DNA of 64,000 nucleotides from a phage, in the NCBI GenBank assembly GCA_018296565.1, contig GCA_018296565.1_3935.1. One strand, written 5' to 3'. This document shows, in pieces, positions 50,616 to 63,298 of this stretch (the first letter of the stretch is position 1; each line of letters opens with the position of its first letter). Under the pieces are notes generated by a model, which searched no databases, was not told the origin of the DNA, and saw only the letters and a program-made list of their open reading frames with translations. The position numbers and the translations under genes were made by a program.

Positions 50616-51685
50616 TTAACCAACACCCAATCTTTTTAGGTGGTGAGAGAAAGACATTTGACTCACTTAATAAACACTACCCAAAAATCTTTGAGCTTTA
50701 TAAACAACAAAAAGCACAAGATTGGTCAGAAGATGAGTTCCCTTTTGAACAATCACGTCTTGATTTTGAGAGTGTCCCAGCATCAATGTCAGGTGTAATG
50801 CTTGAGATTCTTAAGTGGCAGTGGGAAGCAGATACCCAAGTTGCTAAGAGCTTGGCATTCGCCTTTGCACCATTCATCTCTGATGACATCTATGCAACTG
50901 CAATTATGAAGCAGTCTGAGATTGAAAACCTACATGCTCTTACTTACTCAGAGATTGTAAGGCAATGTATTAAAAACCCTGAAACAATTTTAGATGAGAT
51001 TAACCAGAATGTTGCTGTACAAGACCGATTAAAAACTGTGAATCGTGTTCTTGAAGAATTACTGGATGAAGGTATAAACTACCGCCTGAGTTATGTCCGT
51101 GATTCACTTCTGGACAAAGACCATTTACACTTCCATAAAGTGATTCTGAAAGGGCTGTTTGCAGTGACTGCACTTGAAGGCATTTCCTTCATGGCATCCT
51201 TTGCATGTACCTTTGCACTTGATGCTCAGGATAAATTTCAGGGTATTGCTCAAGCTGTCCAGAAAATTATGCTTGATGAAATCCTTCACACCAAAATTGA
51301 TATTGAAGTTTTAAAAGAAACTTTAAGAGATGATGAGTGGCAGAAAGCTTTTCAACAAATTCTTCCAGAGATTAAAGTAATCTTAGATGAAGTAGTTGAA
51401 AGTGAAGAGAAATGGTCGTATTATATCTTCTCCGAAGGACGTGCTGTAGTTGGCTTAAACACAAAACTTCTTCATGAGTGGGTTTACTATAATGCTGCCC
51501 CACTGTATGATATGTTTGGCATTCCCAGAGATTTTGTAGCTCCTAAAGAACCACCTTTGAAGTATATGATTAAGAAGATGGAAATTGATAAAGAGCAGAA
51601 TGCTAATCAGGAGCAACAGAACGGTGCGTACCTGTTGAATACTGTTGTAGATGATTTGAATAGTGGATTTTTAGAGGTTCCTTAA
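50612..51685 (+). CDS. nrdB: Ribonucleotide reductase class I small subunit
   Basis: Track ORF trimmed to ATG at 50612 with aaggag RBS; about 357 aa; position after nrdA. Confidence 0.8.
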   Translation: MINQHPIFLGGERKTFDSLNKHYPKIFELYKQQKAQDWSEDEFPFEQSRLDFESVPASMSGVMLEILKWQWEADTQVAKSLAFAFAPFISDDIYATAIMKQSEIENLHALTYSEIVRQCIKNPETILDEINQNVAVQDRLKTVNRVLEELLDEGINYRLSYVRDSLLDKDHLHFHKVILKGLFAVTALEGISFMASFACTFALDAQDKFQGIAQAVQKIMLDEILHTKIDIEVLKETLRDDEWQKAFQQILPEIKVILDEVVESEEKWSYYIFSEGRAVVGLNTKLLHEWVYYNAAPLYDMFGIPRDFVAPKEPPLKYMIKKMEIDKEQNANQEQQNGAYLLNTVVDDLNSGFLEVP

Positions 51686-51927
51686 TGACTTATGTGATTT
51701 ACTCCAAAACTGGATGCCCTCAGTGTGAGACTGCAAAGAATTTTGCAAAAGCTCGTGGTATTGACCATGTTGTGAGAATGTTAGGGCAGGATTATGAACT
51801 GTCAGACCTGATGGATATTGCACAGATGCCAGTTCGTCAGATGCCATTCATCATGAAAACTGATGGACAAAACCTAAAACCTGTTGGAACGCTACAGAAT
51901 TTTATGGCAGAGGTGAATAATGCTTAA
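51685..51927 (+). CDS. Glutaredoxin-like protein (NrdH/Grx family)
   Basis: 80 aa with CPQC redox motif near N-terminus (YSKTGCPQCETAK), immediately after nrdB. Confidence 0.6.
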   Translation: MTYVIYSKTGCPQCETAKNFAKARGIDHVVRMLGQDYELSDLMDIAQMPVRQMPFIMKTDGQNLKPVGTLQNFMAEVNNA

Positions 51928-52126
51928 ACGCCTTTGGGAAGGTCTGGTTGTTGATGCACCAGCCATTGTGATTGGTATGCTGATTGTTAACCTATTTACT
52001 GATTTTGAACAAGGTTCATTGTTTGGGGCCATGTTACTATGGGTTATCTTTGAAATATTAGAGATACAGTTAGGCATCACTGAAAAACTAAGAAAACTCG
52101 TTTCGAAGTTTTCTAAAAAGATTTAA
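51920..52126 (+). CDS. Small hydrophobic protein
   Basis: 68 aa, two hydrophobic segments, gaggtga RBS. Confidence 0.4.
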   Translation: MLKRLWEGLVVDAPAIVIGMLIVNLFTDFEQGSLFGAMLLWVIFEILEIQLGITEKLRKLVSKFSKKI

Positions 52127-57365: not shown

Positions 57366-57636
57366 AGAAAAGTGGGAGATTTTATCATTAGTCAGTGAAG
57401 GTGGTAATGGTTGTGAAATGTACATGATACGTGGTCATGTCCCAGAGCCAATTGCACTTGAGATGGTAAATAATTATACAGATGGTTCTTACAAAGACTT
57501 AGGAGAACCAACTGTCAAACAGCAATGGGTAAAGCCTGTGCCAGATAGTACAGGAAACTGTAGTGTACTTTATCACGTTGTAGACCCTGTGAAATGCAAG
57601 TCTGCAATGGCAGTAACTAACGTAACTTTTGATTGA
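57358..57636 (+). CDS. Hypothetical protein
   Basis: 92 aa ORF, overlapping start with HNH gene stop. Confidence 0.45.
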   Translation: MAKEKWEILSLVSEGGNGCEMYMIRGHVPEPIALEMVNNYTDGSYKDLGEPTVKQQWVKPVPDSTGNCSVLYHVVDPVKCKSAMAVTNVTFD

Positions 57637-57647
57637 GAGAGAAAATT

Positions 57648-58529
57648 ATGAAAACATCTATACGTGTTACAGTTCATTCACCAACTAAAGGAACTCATGA
57701 AGAAGAGTTTAACATCATCCAATTTCCTTCTGGTGAGATTGGTGGACACTTTTCACCAGAGTTTGTTGATTTTACTGCTTATGCTGCATCATCCATCAAC
57801 AATGTGATTATGATTGTAAAAGGTTATGATAAAGACACATTGTTTGCTGTAGCACTTGCTAAAGAAGCAATTGATGATTTAATTCCTCATGATTATGCTT
57901 TAAAGACTGTCATCTTTTACTACTTACCAAATGCACGATATGACCGTCACATGTTTAAAGGCGATGCAGCAGCTTTGAAGGTTTTTGCTAAACAGGTTAA
58001 TGCAATGGGGTTTGGTGCAGTCTGTGCAGTTGACCCTCACAGTTACGTTCCAGATAACCTGTTTAACTGCTTCCAGAGTATTCCTCAAAAGGAGATTGCA
58101 GTCCACTATGCAAATGACCCACTGGTTGATTACTTAGTGGCCCCAGATGCAGGTGCTGCTAAGAAGGTTGCAGAAACCGCTAAAGAGGTGGATAAACCAT
58201 ATATCACAATGTCTAAAGTACGCAACCTCAAGACTGGTGAAATCACTGGTATGCGAATCCTTGACGATGTTGATTTGACAGATAAAACCGTCATGATTCT
58301 GGATGATATTTGTGATGGAGGACGAACCTTCATAGAAGCAGCTAAACATCTTCGTGAAGCAGGTGCAAAACGAGTGGAACTCTATGTAACACATGGTATC
58401 TTCTCTAAAGATGTTGAAAACCTTCTTGACAATGGTATTGACCATATCTACACTACAAACTCTTTAGGGGAAGCTAAAGACCGTGGCTTAACACATTATA
58501 GCCAAGTTACTGTAGCAAACCTTGATTAA
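57648..58529 (+). CDS. prs: Ribose-phosphate pyrophosphokinase (PRPP synthetase)
   Basis: Track ORF starts at a TTG at 57633; ATG at 57648 follows a gagaga RBS. PRPP-binding motif VMILDDICDGGRTF. Confidence 0.7.
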   Translation: MKTSIRVTVHSPTKGTHEEEFNIIQFPSGEIGGHFSPEFVDFTAYAASSINNVIMIVKGYDKDTLFAVALAKEAIDDLIPHDYALKTVIFYYLPNARYDRHMFKGDAAALKVFAKQVNAMGFGAVCAVDPHSYVPDNLFNCFQSIPQKEIAVHYANDPLVDYLVAPDAGAAKKVAETAKEVDKPYITMSKVRNLKTGEITGMRILDDVDLTDKTVMILDDICDGGRTFIEAAKHLREAGAKRVELYVTHGIFSKDVENLLDNGIDHIYTTNSLGEAKDRGLTHYSQVTVANLD

Positions 58530-58574: not shown

Positions 58575-60356
58575 ATGACTAAATCACTTTATGCAGTACC
58601 AGCAGGTTTAAATGCAGATGCTTACAAATCTGGTCATGTTTACCAGTATCCTAGCGCAACAGAGTACTTGATGTTCAACCTGACACCACGTAGTGATAAA
58701 TGGTTTAACAGCCCTTTAGCAATTGACGGTGTAGTGGCTTTTGGTATTCAACGTTTTGTTAAAGATTACTTGATAGACCACTGGAATGCCACTTTCTTTG
58801 AACGTGATAAAAAAGAAGCAATTGACGAAATCTTAGAAGTCATGCATGGTGTTCTTGGTAAAGATGCTATCGGTCGAGAGCATTGGGAAGCACTTCACGA
58901 CTTAGGTTATCTACCAGTTGAAGTCTACGCTGTAGAAGAAGGCACAGTTGTCCCTATGCGTGTCCCAATGATTGTTTTCCAGAACACTGTTTCAGGTTTC
59001 CATTGGGTAGCAGGTTATCTGGAAGATGCTTTCTCTGCTGAGATTTGGAAGGCTTGTACCATTGCAACTATTGCATTGCACTACAAACGTATCTGTAAGA
59101 GGTGGGCTGACCTTACTTGTGATAACGACTTGCATTTGCCTTATCAGTGCCATGACTTTGCTATGCGTGGTATGTCCGGCTTTACTGATGACGCATTTAA
59201 TGCTGTAGGCCACTTGACCAGCTTTAAAGGAACTGATAGCTTCCCTGCCGTATATACAGCTAAACGCATCTACGGACAGTCTTACCCAGTCTCTGATATT
59301 GGTAGCTCTGTACCAGCCACTGAGCACTCTGTAATGTGTGCAAACATTGCTTGGGAAGGTGGTAACGAATTGATTGAAGAAGAAAGACGCTTTAAAGGTG
59401 AATTACAAACCTTCCGTCGTTTCTTAACAGAAACTTACCCAACGGGTATTGCAAGTATTGTTTCAGATACTTATAACTTCTGGAGAACTGTATCAGTGAT
59501 ACTGCCAGAACTCCGTAAAGAGATTATGGAACGTGACGGCAAGCTGGTAATTCGTCCTGACTCTGGAGACCCTGTGCATATTGTCACAGGTTATAAAGCA
59601 ATCCACTTAGAATGTGCTAAGAAGGCTTATTATGAACATCTTAGCAAGCTGGAAGCTAGTGATACAATGCTGAAATCTGTTCTGAACATGAAGCTTGAAA
59701 ACATCAACTATGGTATTGCTGGATGGCTACTGTCAGAAGGCTACGAAATGGTTGTTGACCGAGAAGACTTTGAAGTTGCTGATACAGTACTGCTGAAGAA
59801 TGCTTATATGGTTGGTTCTGCAAACGTTGTAACACGTCCTGTAGCAGAGATTGATGGAGCTATTAAGACCCTGTATAACATCTTCGGAGGGACTATCAAC
59901 TCCAAAGGTTTTAAAGTACTGGATGAGCACATCGGACTTATTTATGGTGACTCTATCACGTTGGAACGTGCAAACGAAATATTGAAGCGTTTGTATGAAA
60001 TGGGTTTTGCAAGCTCTAACGTAGTGTTTGGTGTAGGCTCTTACACTTACCAGTACATGACTCGTGACACCTTTGCATTTGCTGTCAAAGCAACTCTTGC
60101 AAGCATTGGTGGTAAGGAGATTATGCTTGCAAAAGACCCTAAAACAGATAGTGGTGTGAAGAAGTCTGCCTTTGGTGGTGTAGCGCCTATGTGGGATGGT
60201 GATAAATTGAAAGCTGTAGATGGCTATGGATTCCAGAGCTTTGCAGATGCACTTGAACATCCAGCTTGTGCTTTACGTTTAGTCTTTAGCGACTCTGAGC
60301 AGTTTGGCTACACAACTCTTGGCGATATTCGAAATAATATTGACAAGCAGCTTTAA
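58575..60356 (+). CDS. nadV: Nicotinamide phosphoribosyltransferase (Nampt/NadV)
   Basis: 593 aa; matches remembered Nampt blocks: DAYKSGH, HDFAMRGMS...KGTDS, SIVSDTYNFW, IRPDSGDP. Confidence 0.8.
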   Translation: MTKSLYAVPAGLNADAYKSGHVYQYPSATEYLMFNLTPRSDKWFNSPLAIDGVVAFGIQRFVKDYLIDHWNATFFERDKKEAIDEILEVMHGVLGKDAIGREHWEALHDLGYLPVEVYAVEEGTVVPMRVPMIVFQNTVSGFHWVAGYLEDAFSAEIWKACTIATIALHYKRICKRWADLTCDNDLHLPYQCHDFAMRGMSGFTDDAFNAVGHLTSFKGTDSFPAVYTAKRIYGQSYPVSDIGSSVPATEHSVMCANIAWEGGNELIEEERRFKGELQTFRRFLTETYPTGIASIVSDTYNFWRTVSVILPELRKEIMERDGKLVIRPDSGDPVHIVTGYKAIHLECAKKAYYEHLSKLEASDTMLKSVLNMKLENINYGIAGWLLSEGYEMVVDREDFEVADTVLLKNAYMVGSANVVTRPVAEIDGAIKTLYNIFGGTINSKGFKVLDEHIGLIYGDSITLERANEILKRLYEMGFASSNVVFGVGSYTYQYMTRDTFAFAVKATLASIGGKEIMLAKDPKTDSGVKKSAFGGVAPMWDGDKLKAVDGYGFQSFADALEHPACALRLVFSDSEQFGYTTLGDIRNNIDKQL

Positions 60357-60370
60357 AAGTATATGATAAG

Positions 60371-60392
60371 AGGCTCCTACGGGAGCCTTTTT
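60371..60392 (+). terminator. Rho-independent terminator after nampt
   Basis: Hairpin aggctcc-tacg-ggagcct followed by TTTT. Confidence 0.6.
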
Positions 60393-60409
60393 AATTTCTG
60401 GAGAAGACT

Positions 60410-60745
60410 ATGAAAATCAAAGAAATGAACATCAACATTATCTTAGAAGAACGTTGGGAGAACATCAAGAAGCCTGAAGATGGCCATAAGTTCCTCAACA
60501 AAATTTTAGTAGCAGCTAAAGAAGAACTGACTGGAAAGGTTGCAGCAGCAATCACAATAAAGGTTTGTGTAAAAGGTCTTCCACAACATCACCAGTTTGC
60601 ACTTGACGAGTTTAAAGAAAGCTTCTACAATCCAAACAAACAGATGCTTGAAAGTAACTTTGCAGTATCTACAAGTATCGTTCATGACAGAAGCTTTATC
60701 CTTTACAAAAATATGAGAGGTGAGTCATGCAAGCATATTGGATAG
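60410..60745 (+). CDS. Hypothetical protein
   Basis: 111 aa ORF, ATG start. Confidence 0.45.
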   Translation: MKIKEMNINIILEERWENIKKPEDGHKFLNKILVAAKEELTGKVAAAITIKVCVKGLPQHHQFALDEFKESFYNPNKQMLESNFAVSTSIVHDRSFILYKNMRGESCKHIG

Positions 60746-60903
60746 AAATTTTACTGTCACTTGGTAGTGTAGCAGTGTTCGTTTACCTTCTTTGCAAGTA
60801 CTATGCAGAACACAAAAAATGTGACTTCTGTAATGGGGAAGGTTATACAAGAGCAGGTTGTTGCCCTATGTGTGGCGGTTCTGGTAAAATGTTTAATAAG
60901 TGA
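60728..60903 (+). CDS. Small membrane protein with zinc-ribbon (unannotated ORF, 58 aa)
   Basis: ATG with agaggtgag RBS; N-terminal TM (ILLSLGSVAVFVYLL) then CDFCNGEG...CPMCGGSG; below the track cutoff. Confidence 0.35.
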
Positions 60904-60931
60904 TTTAACAGTAAACTAAGAGGAAAGTATT

Positions 60932-63298
60932 ATGCGCATGGTAAATGACCACGCAGAAGTGATTAAGAGTTCAACTTCTTTAGAGACGTCTCAAGCACAG
61001 ATTACAATGACACCTGAGATGTTCAGCCTTTTGAGTTCTGGTGTATACACCTTTAAAGAAAGGGCAGTGATTCGTGAACTGTCATGTAACGCAGTGGATG
61101 CTCAGAAAGAAGCTGGAAAAGAGAACATCCCATTCCATGTGCATTTACCTACTCGTTTTGAGCCTTACTTCGAAGTTCGTGATTTTGGAACTGGATTGAC
61201 TCATGATAAAGTTATGAGTCTGTACCTAAACTATGGAGCTTCTACGAAGAACGACTCTAATGACTACATTGGTGCAATGGGTATCGGCTCAAAGTCACCA
61301 TTTGCAATTGCTCAGTCATTCACAGTATCTAGTTATGTTGACGGTGTTGTTAATAAGTACTCTGTTTATCTTGAGAATGGTATCCCTCAAGTAACTAAGC
61401 TGACAACTAACCCAACAAAAGAACCTAATGGTTTAGCTGTACGTGTGGCAGTTGCTGACCACCGTATCTCAAAGTTCTTTGAAGAAGCTGGGAATGTGTA
61501 CTCATACTTCACTGTAAAACCAGAAAGTAATATTGAGTACAACGATGTATTAGCAGATATGAACGTCATTGCCCGTGAAGAAGGTGTTTATGATGCCATG
61601 ATTCATAAGCACAGCTGGCGTTCTAGTGATAACAGGACAGAGTTTAATGTGGTGATGGGTAACATTGCCTACCCTGTTAATATGGAAGCATTACTTGGCG
61701 ATGATTTCTTCAAAGTATTGCCAGAGTTTTTCCGTAGGAGCGTAGACCTTGTAAACATCTACATGCCTATTGGTTCAGTTGCTATTGCAGCTTCTCGTGA
61801 AGCATTGCAGATGAATGACACGACAAAAAATGTTATCATTGAGGCTACTAAAAAGATAACTGAAGCCATTACAAAGGATGTTATCAAAAAGATTAACAAT
61901 CAGCCCACACTCATGGATGCTGCACAGGCTTATGCTGAGTTGCGTTTGAACTCACGAGAAATGTTTAATGCTGTGTGTCCAAAGCTAGAGTGGGGAGGCG
62001 TTAAGCTTGATTCTCTGGAAGAAGAGTTGCTAAACATTCGTCGCGGGATTATCTACGCAGAAGACGGCTCAGTCATTTATGAGCGTGACGGTAAAGGTAA
62101 TATTAAGGTTGATAGGAACGGAAACAACATCCCTAAAGTAGATTACCTTTATGACCCAGTTGCTTATGTCAAGTTCAACTCTTTAGAGAGTAAGATTCGT
62201 GCAACAGCACTTTCCTACACTCAAGAGGCAAGTATGTTCAATATCTTTGGTGCAATGCGTAAAAGCCAAATTGAACAGTTTTTGTTCGTGATTAATGACC
62301 GTCGCAATAAAAATGGCACTGAGAAGACTGTAGGACGAAATCAAATCTTGCGTGGTGCATGTCGAGACTACGCTAACGAGTCAGGCCTGTTCCACAGATA
62401 CAATGGTATTGTGTTTGTATTCTCGACTGAAAAAGAGTTAGATGATTTAATCAATCTACACAAACTTGATAAAAGCTTGTTAAAGATTGTGAAAATGTCT
62501 GATAAGGAGCATCATTATCAGCGTAAAGAGGCTGTGAGAGGTGTTGTAAAACTATGGAAAGCTGTTCCAGCAGAATCTGTAGCTTCATACAAAGAGGTGT
62601 CAGAAGACTTAGACACAATTGAAGAACCTCAGCTTTATATTAAGGCAGTTGGTGACACAGTTGATGGTAGATGTTTTTGCTCATCTCCAGAAGATGTAGC
62701 TAAGTCAGTTGCTAATGTTATTGGAAAGACAGTTTATGTTTTCCGAAAAGCAAATTGGAAAAAGATACCAGAAGACTGGATTGAAGTAGATGAGAAGCTC
62801 TTGAACGACAGCTTAACTGATGTTCATTGGATTAATCATAACAGGTATATGACACGCATCTACATGAATGGTGTTCTTGACCTTACAAGTAGCTGGATTA
62901 TTGCCAGAAACTTTACATTCAATAACAGGAAGATTTCTCGTGGCTATTGCTATTCACGAGACACAAACAAAACTATCTTCTTAGAAGGCAATGAAGACGC
63001 TGTTGAGGCAATGTTTGGTAAAATCCAATACGTTGCTGCACCGTTTGCATACACTTACACTATTAGTAGATTGCAAACTTTGAAAGACTGCCTTGACAAC
63101 GATACAAAGCTGTACAAGAAAATTAAGAAAGCTGGTGACCGTATGGTCATTAAGGTGACAAACTACCTTTCAAAAAGAAAACAAGAAAACTTCTTGCTTT
63201 CTCATTTAGATTGGAATAAAGTGTCACCCATCGAAGTGAGTAAGTTCTTAGGCTTTGATGTGAAGTGTGTTCCAGAAGGGACTACAATTTACGATTAA
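60932..63298 (+). CDS. rIIA: rIIA-like protein
   Basis: 788 aa; N-terminal region matches remembered T4 rIIA blocks (RAVIRELSCNAVDA, VRDFGTGL, NDYIGAMGIGSKSPF), a GHKL ATPase-like fold. Confidence 0.75.
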   Translation: MRMVNDHAEVIKSSTSLETSQAQITMTPEMFSLLSSGVYTFKERAVIRELSCNAVDAQKEAGKENIPFHVHLPTRFEPYFEVRDFGTGLTHDKVMSLYLNYGASTKNDSNDYIGAMGIGSKSPFAIAQSFTVSSYVDGVVNKYSVYLENGIPQVTKLTTNPTKEPNGLAVRVAVADHRISKFFEEAGNVYSYFTVKPESNIEYNDVLADMNVIAREEGVYDAMIHKHSWRSSDNRTEFNVVMGNIAYPVNMEALLGDDFFKVLPEFFRRSVDLVNIYMPIGSVAIAASREALQMNDTTKNVIIEATKKITEAITKDVIKKINNQPTLMDAAQAYAELRLNSREMFNAVCPKLEWGGVKLDSLEEELLNIRRGIIYAEDGSVIYERDGKGNIKVDRNGNNIPKVDYLYDPVAYVKFNSLESKIRATALSYTQEASMFNIFGAMRKSQIEQFLFVINDRRNKNGTEKTVGRNQILRGACRDYANESGLFHRYNGIVFVFSTEKELDDLINLHKLDKSLLKIVKMSDKEHHYQRKEAVRGVVKLWKAVPAESVASYKEVSEDLDTIEEPQLYIKAVGDTVDGRCFCSSPEDVAKSVANVIGKTVYVFRKANWKKIPEDWIEVDEKLLNDSLTDVHWINHNRYMTRIYMNGVLDLTSSWIIARNFTFNNRKISRGYCYSRDTNKTIFLEGNEDAVEAMFGKIQYVAAPFAYTYTISRLQTLKDCLDNDTKLYKKIKKAGDRMVIKVTNYLSKRKQENFLLSHLDWNKVSPIEVSKFLGFDVKCVPEGTTIYD

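Follow-up and report, generated by a model that had tools for sequence, protein, structure and literature searches.

The closest described counterpart of the gene considered here is gene 131 of phage Felix O1, which the supplement of the Felix O1 genome paper (Whichard 2010, PMC3185647) lists as 'CHP, membrane protein (1 TMD)' of 58 amino acids and as 39% identical to EpJSE_00047 of phage JSE. Its product (Felix01p243, NP_945023) is encoded at 85876-86052, just before the genome end and rIIA. We analysed a stretch of 64,000 nucleotides of phage DNA (contig GCA_018296565.1_3935.1 of assembly GCA_018296565.1, called the window throughout) and find the same gene near its end, with the product MQAYWIEILLSLGSVAVFVYLLCKYYAEHKKCDFCNGEGYTRAGCCPMCGGSGKMFNK, which is predicted from sequence to span the membrane once and to carry a Cys4 zinc knuckle at its C terminus. 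The window belongs to Felixounavirus (Felix O1-like phages, subfamily Ounavirinae), the region around the gene being 96-97% identical to Felixounavirus genomes. The gene has also been named Bas63_0083 and, in SUSP1, AVU07_agp080, and no substantive difference separates it from these or from the family PHROG 3931, whose profile it covers from end to end, residues 1-58 aligning with all 59 profile positions (E 2.4e-33). The gene and its immediate surroundings are as follows.

60727-60903, plus strand: 58-residue gene (Felix O1 gene 131 family, PHROG 3931), with ATG at 60727 and TGA ending at 60903
60717-60723, plus strand: Shine-Dalgarno sequence GAGGTGA of the 58-residue gene, embedded in the upstream 111-residue open reading frame (ORF)
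60410-60745, plus strand: 111-residue ORF (Felix O1 gene 130, PHROG 4262), soluble, with a predicted beta-alpha-beta-alpha-beta fold; its last 19 nucleotides overlap the 58-residue gene
60932-63298, plus strand: rIIA, 788 residues, the next gene, after a 28-nucleotide gap that holds only a ribosome-binding site

An original prediction, made from the letters of the window, had described an unannotated ORF with a strong ribosome-binding site, overlapping the end of the 60410-60745 ORF and lying just upstream of rIIA. The ATG is indeed present, although at 60727 and not at 60728, an offset of one nucleotide, and the ribosome-binding site is as strong as described: the GAGG core of the GAGGTGA ends 6 nucleotides before the ATG, and the Moogle record has one annotated at the corresponding position. 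The overlap amounts to 19 shared nucleotides (60727-60745), and rIIA starts 28 nucleotides past the stop codon. The word 'unannotated' is wrong for the family, as most GenBank records of relatives carry an annotation for this gene, variously as 'hypothetical protein', as 'putative membrane protein' (KhF1, Bas63_0083; the KhF1 entry carries a note pointing to Felix01p243) or as 'heat shock protein' (EcoM2, Mushroom). The gene has thus been catalogued in Felix O1-like phages since 2010 and was not overlooked; the first reading of it was correct but not new. Its zinc-knuckle character is absent from explicit published annotation, save for the label 'heat shock protein', assigned automatically in EcoM2 and Mushroom. 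Among work on phage membrane proteins with CxxCxGxG motifs or zinc fingers of the DnaJ kind, and on Felixounavirus transcriptomics, we found no study of the gene 131 protein, and evidence for its translation did not turn up.

The ORF is a genuine conserved protein-coding gene, as had been claimed with conservation in relatives as a proposed check, and it is under strong purifying selection. Across 20 distinct Felixounavirus alleles, drawn from the window and 22 IMG/VR loci, the ratio of nonsynonymous to synonymous substitution rates (dN/dS) is 0.077 in the 58-residue frame versus 2.0 and 0.9 in the other two frames, and 30 of the 43 variable sites fall at codon position 3. The frame is intact in 29 of 29 Ounavirinae loci from IMG/VR. 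By tblastn the gene was found in 262 phage records, with 89-100% protein identity within Felixounavirus and 45-54% in Mooglevirus and Suspvirus, two genera in which the position of the homologs (45-55% identity) is also the same. In the Kolesnikvirus phiEa21-4, an Erwinia phage, this site, following nadV, likewise holds a homolog, of 54 residues (hhalign 97%, E 8e-11). The gene keeps its place before rIIA in four Ounavirinae genera, and the order PHROG 4262 gene, 58-residue gene, rIIA is found in EcoM2, KhF1, Moogle, SUSP1, SUSP2, EcSzw_1 and Bas63. This Felixounavirus region also occurs, at ~96% identity, in three records that bear the names Campylobacter phage A132, Campylobacter phage A126 and Staphylococcus phage SA1; these are probably contaminated or mislabelled database entries.

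A few database entries carry frameshifted alleles (P0003-P0007, NJ12, phiWec174). The two frameshifts that were aligned, those of NJ12 and phiWec174, are single-base indels in the runs A6 (60814-60819) and G4 (60835-60838) with intact downstream codons, and are probably sequencing or slippage artefacts rather than evidence of decay. The +1 frame is open for 38 codons over the 3' half of the gene (window 60803-60919), so that indels in A6 or G4 give split or C-terminally altered products; phiWec174 has an annotated altered product of 63 residues, and the frameshifted P0003 and P0005-P0007 have the same 63-residue length. This +1 frame is without purifying selection (dN/dS at least 0.9).

The 58-residue gene is predicted to be translationally coupled to the 111-residue gene, in agreement with the original prediction: the 19-nucleotide overlap is kept in Felixounavirus, Mooglevirus and Suspvirus, with gene pair and overlap both preserved in Moogle, SUSP1, SUSP2 and EcSzw_1. 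The two genes co-occur in the same 258 phage records. The 111-residue protein matches PHROG 4262 with E 1.6e-68, and its AlphaFold2 (AF2) model has a predicted local distance difference test score (pLDDT) of 75.5; a Foldseek search of the PDB with this model gave no significant match, the best being IF3-C-like (E 0.05, TM-score 0.4-0.5).

Predicted membrane anchor and zinc knuckle

The short product divides into an N-terminal hydrophobic helix and a cysteine-rich tail, as the original prediction had proposed. Invariance below refers to an alignment of 11 sequences comprising Ounavirinae and RB49-like versions.

60739-60795, plus strand: transmembrane helix WIEILLSLGSVAVFVYLLC, about residues 5-23, predicted by hydropathy; Glu7 and Ser11 are invariant
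60820-60843, plus strand: first CxxCxGxG knuckle, CDFCNGEG, residues 32-39; C32, C35, G37 and G39 are invariant
60862-60885, plus strand: second CxxCxGxG knuckle, CPMCGGSG, residues 46-53; C46, C49, G51 and G53 are invariant

The helix reaches a Kyte-Doolittle 17-residue mean of 2.26 at residues 6-22, and all 9 homologs compared reach 2.0 or more by the same measure (range 2.0-3.2). None of these nine has a lysine or arginine before the helix, where an acidic residue is usual, and all nine have one within 8 residues after it. This distribution of charge suggests, by the positive-inside rule, that the N terminus faces out and the C terminus in, and the protein is predicted to be an N-out/C-in bitopic inner-membrane protein whose 27-residue C-terminal tail carries both knuckles. 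Small coat proteins of the Pf3 type have the same N-out/C-in orientation.

Both knuckles are exact matches to CxxCxGxG, and their occurrence is beyond chance. Six-frame translation of the 64-kb window yields three matches to the motif, two in the 58-residue gene and a third that spans a stop codon, and 100 shuffles gave a mean of 0.19 matches per window. A fifth cysteine, Cys45, directly precedes the second knuckle and is present in 10 of the 11 aligned sequences; C45 and K54 are nearly invariant, and C45 is replaced by proline in P0011, P0058 and P0110.

Profile and structure comparisons agree on the kind of module to which the tail belongs. The family profile aligns to both halves of the cysteine-rich domain of Escherichia coli DnaJ (1exk, E 9.4e-12), with the first-knuckle stretch aligning to the repeats of that domain, and it also matches human DNAJA3 (E 2e-6) and anti-TRAP (3lcz, E 0.0019). 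The alignment with anti-TRAP is ungapped, query residues 30-53 against chain residues 10-33, and the Cys spacing is therefore the same. The AF2 model (pLDDT 77) places residues 3-27 in a helix, after which comes a small knuckle hairpin, and with this model anti-TRAP is the top Foldseek match in the PDB (root mean square deviation 1.0 Å over 24 residues, 42% identity, probability 0.97, E 0.14); DnaJ (1exk, DnaJA2) and, weakly, BSD2 (6ekc, E 7.6) come next. Against predicted viral structures (BFVD) the search returned only uncharacterised or 'DnaJ-like' small phage proteins, including the Sf18, RB49 and phiEa21-4 homologs. The DnaJ-like zinc-finger arrangement that had been proposed is thus recovered both by the 1exk profile match and by the structural match to anti-TRAP.

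Family thresholds were missed throughout: the protein scores 14.9 bits against the gathering threshold of 32.7 for Pfam PF00684, 18.5 against 27 for DUF5351 (PF17302), 16.1 against 28.6 for the Lar restriction-alleviation protein (PF14354) and, for the anti-TRAP families, 9.2 against 32 (Pfam PF15777) and 10.5 against 65 (NCBIfam NF058604). Nothing in NCBIfam matched above cut-off, nor did any PADLOC defence profile, the best of these (E 0.065) being a motif-level match only. Neither Pfam nor NCBIfam gave a match to a J domain with its HPD motif, for which 58 residues leave no room. On the strength of the sequence and the model, the tail is a two-repeat, presumably single-zinc knuckle of the DnaJ/anti-TRAP type; the missing J domain and the presence of two repeats where DnaJ has four set the protein apart from DnaJ itself.

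The same architecture occurs in a version of 52-59 residues in RB49-like T4-type phages (Krischvirus and diverged metagenomic relatives). RB49p046/EpJSE_00047 (Krischvirus, 52 residues) has a transmembrane helix, CxxCxGxG, five residues and CCxxCxGxGK, has 41-44% identity and differs in lacking the N-terminal MQxYW motif. The homology between the two lineages is already noted in the annotations of Felix O1 (supplement, PMC3185647) and phiEa21-4.

Word-indexed protein searches returned only close relatives and the RB49-like versions. An exhaustive profile search gave 1254 matches which, beyond the family, were DnaJ-type multi-repeat proteins matched by motif alone and uninformative for function. 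Distant IMG/VR candidates (L036, L038-L042, L044-L047) were likewise rejected as homologs, the resemblance being confined to the motif; they include phage DnaJ and C-terminal knuckles on large proteins. A lone CxxCxGxG-x(5-8)-CxxCxGxG pair stands at or near the C terminus of large unrelated phage proteins (L038, L040, L045; also L039, L046, L044), and the pair recurs in many small phage ORFs among the BFVD matches. It seems that phages have widely reused the single-zinc DnaJ-type knuckle as a module.

Genomic neighbourhood and probable transcription unit

The region had been described as likely devoted to membrane and exclusion functions. This holds in part, rIIA and rIIB lying downstream, but the region is not purely of that kind: anti-defence enzymes of the NARP1 pathway lie upstream, and 'counter-defence and accessory region' fits better. 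The genes at 57633-58529 and 58575-60356 are homologs of Bas63 genes 79-80 (Adps, Namat), which have been shown experimentally to form the NAD+-reconstitution anti-defence pathway NARP1 (bioRxiv 10.1101/2024.02.11.579819). Relatives label these homologs ribose-phosphate pyrophosphokinase and nicotinamide phosphoribosyltransferase; given the homology to Adps and Namat, these common database names are misleading. On the other side, rIIA/rIIB of several phages including SUSP1 counter RexAB (PMC11879866). The rIIA product of the window has no transmembrane segment, its best 19-residue Kyte-Doolittle mean being 1.29. In the metagenomic contig P0168, a 116-residue protein fuses the N terminus of the Adps-like gene product to the C-terminal half of the 111-residue protein, which implies a natural deletion of most of NARP1 in some Felixounavirus-like genome.

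Two further features separate the NARP1 genes from the gene pair.

60340-60367, plus strand: sigma-70-like promoter, TTGACA-16 nucleotides-TATGAT, which agrees with the consensus at 11 of 12 positions and lies within the final codons of the Namat/nadV gene
60368-60391, plus strand: terminator-like GC-rich hairpin, GAGGCTCC-TACG-GGAGCCTT, with a T-run, starting directly after the -10 hexamer

The promoter pattern TTGACA-16-TAT(G/T)AT stands at the same place in EcoM2, Bas63, Moogle, SUSP1 and SUSP2, and the cassette 60340-60391 as a whole is nearly identical across Felixounavirus, Mooglevirus and Suspvirus despite diverged flanking genes. From the consensus match and this conservation, 60340-60367 is predicted to function as a promoter, and the cassette looks like an insulator that would end the NARP1 transcript and start the one containing rII: the hairpin would stop read-through from the upstream NARP1 genes, whereas transcripts from the promoter would begin inside the 5' arm of the hairpin and so escape it. 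No terminator-like site was found between the 58-residue gene and rIIA (60903-60932), and the two are probably co-transcribed. In Felix O1, gene 130 is positive by reverse transcription PCR and maximal at 25 min, gene 1 (rIIA) peaks at the same time, and t2, the terminator listed next, lies after rIIB. The genes (variable small gene)-130-131-rIIA-rIIB are likely to form one transcription unit.

The interval between the Namat gene and the 111-residue gene is a variable gene slot (window 60357-60409; L055 11651-11995; L003 2473-2694; L048 1972-2187). It holds a 114-residue gene in Bas63, a 73-residue gene in Moogle, a 71-residue gene in SUSP1 (with a DUF7279 match in L054) and none in the window, and, lying downstream of the promoter cassette, it looks like a local hotspot for accessory genes.

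Possible roles

We tentatively favour an accessory N-out/C-in inner-membrane protein whose cytoplasmic one-Zn2+ knuckle binds a partner protein. As a whole this proposal falls a little short of even chances, its structural part being near-certain and its functional part weak. The helix would insert N-out/C-in in the inner membrane, which would place the four cysteines in the reducing cytoplasm, as zinc binding requires; there they would stay reduced and bind one Zn2+, as the conservation of the motifs and the fold match suggest. The knuckle would then form a rigid element at a distance of a few residues from the membrane's inner face, and by analogy the protein may act as a membrane-tethered protein-binding adaptor that captures, holds or blocks a partner at the cytoplasmic face. 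To our knowledge every characterised protein with a module of the DnaJ type (DnaJ, anti-TRAP, BSD2) contacts other proteins through it, which makes such an adaptor the most likely mechanism. The partner may be the 111-residue protein, RIIA/RIIB or a host membrane-associated protein.

That the role is accessory, in host interaction or counter-defence and not in replication or morphogenesis, is most likely given the position between NARP1 and rIIA/rIIB and the outcome of a transcriptome-wide CRISPRi-ART knockdown screen of SUSP1, in which AVU07_agp080 scored a fitness of 1.05 with 7 guides and was classed 'Not Fit' (agp079 scored -0.49 and was likewise 'Not Fit'; rIIA was 'Semi-Fit'). The screen shows little more than that there is no strong requirement for the gene on a laboratory strain.

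Several points weigh against this proposal. The orientation is read from the lysine and arginine count alone, and the net charge of the C-terminal tail is neutral or negative in Moogle and SUSP2. 'Not Fit' is weak evidence, as the SUSP1 screen, according to its authors, also missed lysis genes, and the placement in counter-defence is guilt by association. The link to the 111-residue gene is not universal, the 113-residue gene upstream in phiEa21-4 (gp116) having no detectable homology to it, and neither is the link to rII: RB49p046/EpJSE_00047 lies far from rII, overlaps an nrdH glutaredoxin gene and precedes a DUF7570 gene. That the conserved neighbour differs between the lineages weakens the case for an obligatory partnership with either the 111-residue protein or rII, and leaves a rival thiol/redox role in contention.

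According to this rival, the cysteine-rich tail is not a static zinc knuckle but a redox-active module, either the substrate or partner of a glutaredoxin or a membrane thiol-disulfide oxidoreductase. Reports of such activity exist for the zinc-finger domain of DnaJ and for LQY1 and CYO1, DnaJ-like proteins of plants that are anchored in membranes. In all four RB49-like contexts examined (Whisky, L051, L052, L053) the gene overlaps the 3' end of an upstream gene of ~90 residues, which is a glutaredoxin/NrdH in three, by annotation in the Whisky group and by a faint Pfam match in L051 and L053; the 91-residue upstream gene of L052 has no Pfam match on record. The nearly invariant Cys45 directly before the second knuckle also speaks for such a role, although it gives way to proline in P0011, P0058 and P0110 as noted above. 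In Ounavirinae, moreover, the upstream partner has neither a CxxC motif nor a thioredoxin-like match, the glutaredoxin of Felixounavirus lies ~9 kb away, paired with a different small membrane ORF, and close packing in which the stop of one gene overlaps the start of the next is frequent among phages and does not have to mean shared function. We regard the thiol/redox role as unlikely. The 111-residue protein had been considered as a degenerate thioredoxin or glutaredoxin, which would unite the contexts of both lineages, and was rejected because it has no CxxC and no thioredoxin-fold match.

Where its product was identified, the next gene after the RB49-like version is a DUF7570 gene, and the order glutaredoxin/NrdH, transmembrane zinc-knuckle gene, DUF7570 is conserved in L051 (3742-4486), L053 (125-852) and L005 (2736-3462), with an overlap of 8-11 nucleotides between the first two genes even between clearly diverged versions. 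The window glutaredoxin (51685-51927; CPQC, 80 residues) overlaps by 8 nucleotides a 68-residue ORF with two hydrophobic stretches (51920-52126); this pair echoes the RB49-like 'glutaredoxin then small membrane protein' arrangement, but the 68-residue ORF has no zinc knuckle.

A more specific form of the adaptor, about as unlikely as the thiol/redox role, makes the membrane-tethered knuckle a dedicated counter-defence factor within a NARP1-gp130-gp131-rIIA-rIIB island. It could be a subunit that would position RIIA/RIIB, which lack a transmembrane segment of their own, at the inner membrane, or an inhibitor in the style of anti-TRAP that would plug a membrane-acting abortive-infection effector on its cytoplasmic side.

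Acting on host machines through a transmembrane helix is common among small membrane proteins of phages, and the 58-residue protein could be a host-takeover or exclusion factor of this kind, either for superinfection exclusion as with Imm or as an inhibitor of the divisome or a transporter, with the knuckle as a stabilising cap. The polar Glu7 and Ser11, invariant on one helix face in Ounavirinae and RB49-like versions alike, would fit such a role, as would the conservation of residues 7-13 outside the 19-nucleotide overlap. The most strictly conserved positions are, however, the four Cys and four Gly of the knuckles, which argues that the tail is functional and not decorative, and we consider a helix-borne function slightly less probable again than a thiol/redox one.

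A role in lysis timing, as the holin or antiholin of Felix O1-like phages beside the 'lysis inhibitor' genes rIIA/rIIB, is improbable. A published abstract and the supplementary discussion of the SUSP1 screen give Felix O1 as lacking a recognisable holin, the product is a small membrane protein with a single transmembrane segment, and the SUSP1 screen is compatible with this role because the annotated lysis genes were also 'Not Fit'. The gene is not, however, in a lysis cassette (in Bas63 it is adjacent to neither the spanin nor the endolysin genes, and the spanins lie six genes past rIIB), and the RB49-like homolog is far from the lysis genes of those phages. As T4 relatives, RB49-like phages should have their own holin T, and we know of no holin with a zinc knuckle. 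Least credible, and effectively refuted by the selection analysis, is the reading as a chance ORF or as a remnant that has lost its function, for which the few frameshifted entries speak, against the low dN/dS and the retention of frame and motifs at 45-55% identity across genera.

As it stands, gene 131 matters little, since its hypothetical membrane protein is already catalogued in a phage genus of which many genomes have been sequenced. What is gained is a sharper description: a Pf3-coat-like predicted N-out/C-in anchor combined with an anti-TRAP-like presumed single zinc knuckle, encoded in a promoter-bounded block with rIIA directly after the experimentally proven NARP1 genes. This makes it a well-defined candidate gene beside rII and NARP1. 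Should it cooperate with RIIA/RIIB, this would bear on the old question of how the rII proteins act at the membrane and would give a first function for many small zinc-knuckle ORFs scattered in phage genomes.

Comparison with known zinc-knuckle proteins

The protein shares with the DnaJ cysteine-rich domain (PF00684, 1exk) an identical CxxCxGxG knuckle sequence. It has two repeats and at most one zinc centre, whereas DnaJ has four repeats and two centres, and it is membrane-anchored and lacks the J domain, the G/F region and the C-terminal substrate-binding domains; it is a relative of the DnaJ module and not a DnaJ. DnaJ-type zinc fingers without a J domain are also found in the plant proteins BSD2, LQY1, CYO1/SCO2 and OR, several of which are tethered by a transmembrane helix and which have roles as holdase, assembly factor or disulfide isomerase. 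These proteins are, however, much larger, eukaryotic and organellar and have two zinc centres (four repeats), and common descent with them finds no support beyond the shared motif.

Anti-TRAP (RtpA of Bacillus, 53 residues; 2bx9, 3lcz, 3ld0) is of similar size and forms its Cys4 centre from two knuckles with the same spacing. Unlike the 58-residue protein it is soluble, and it oligomerises to a trimer and dodecamer via a C-terminal helix, which the phage protein, ending 5 residues past its second knuckle, does not have. The order of the parts is also reversed, the knuckle preceding the helix in anti-TRAP and following the transmembrane helix in the 58-residue protein. Anti-TRAP binds and blocks another protein through its zinc module.

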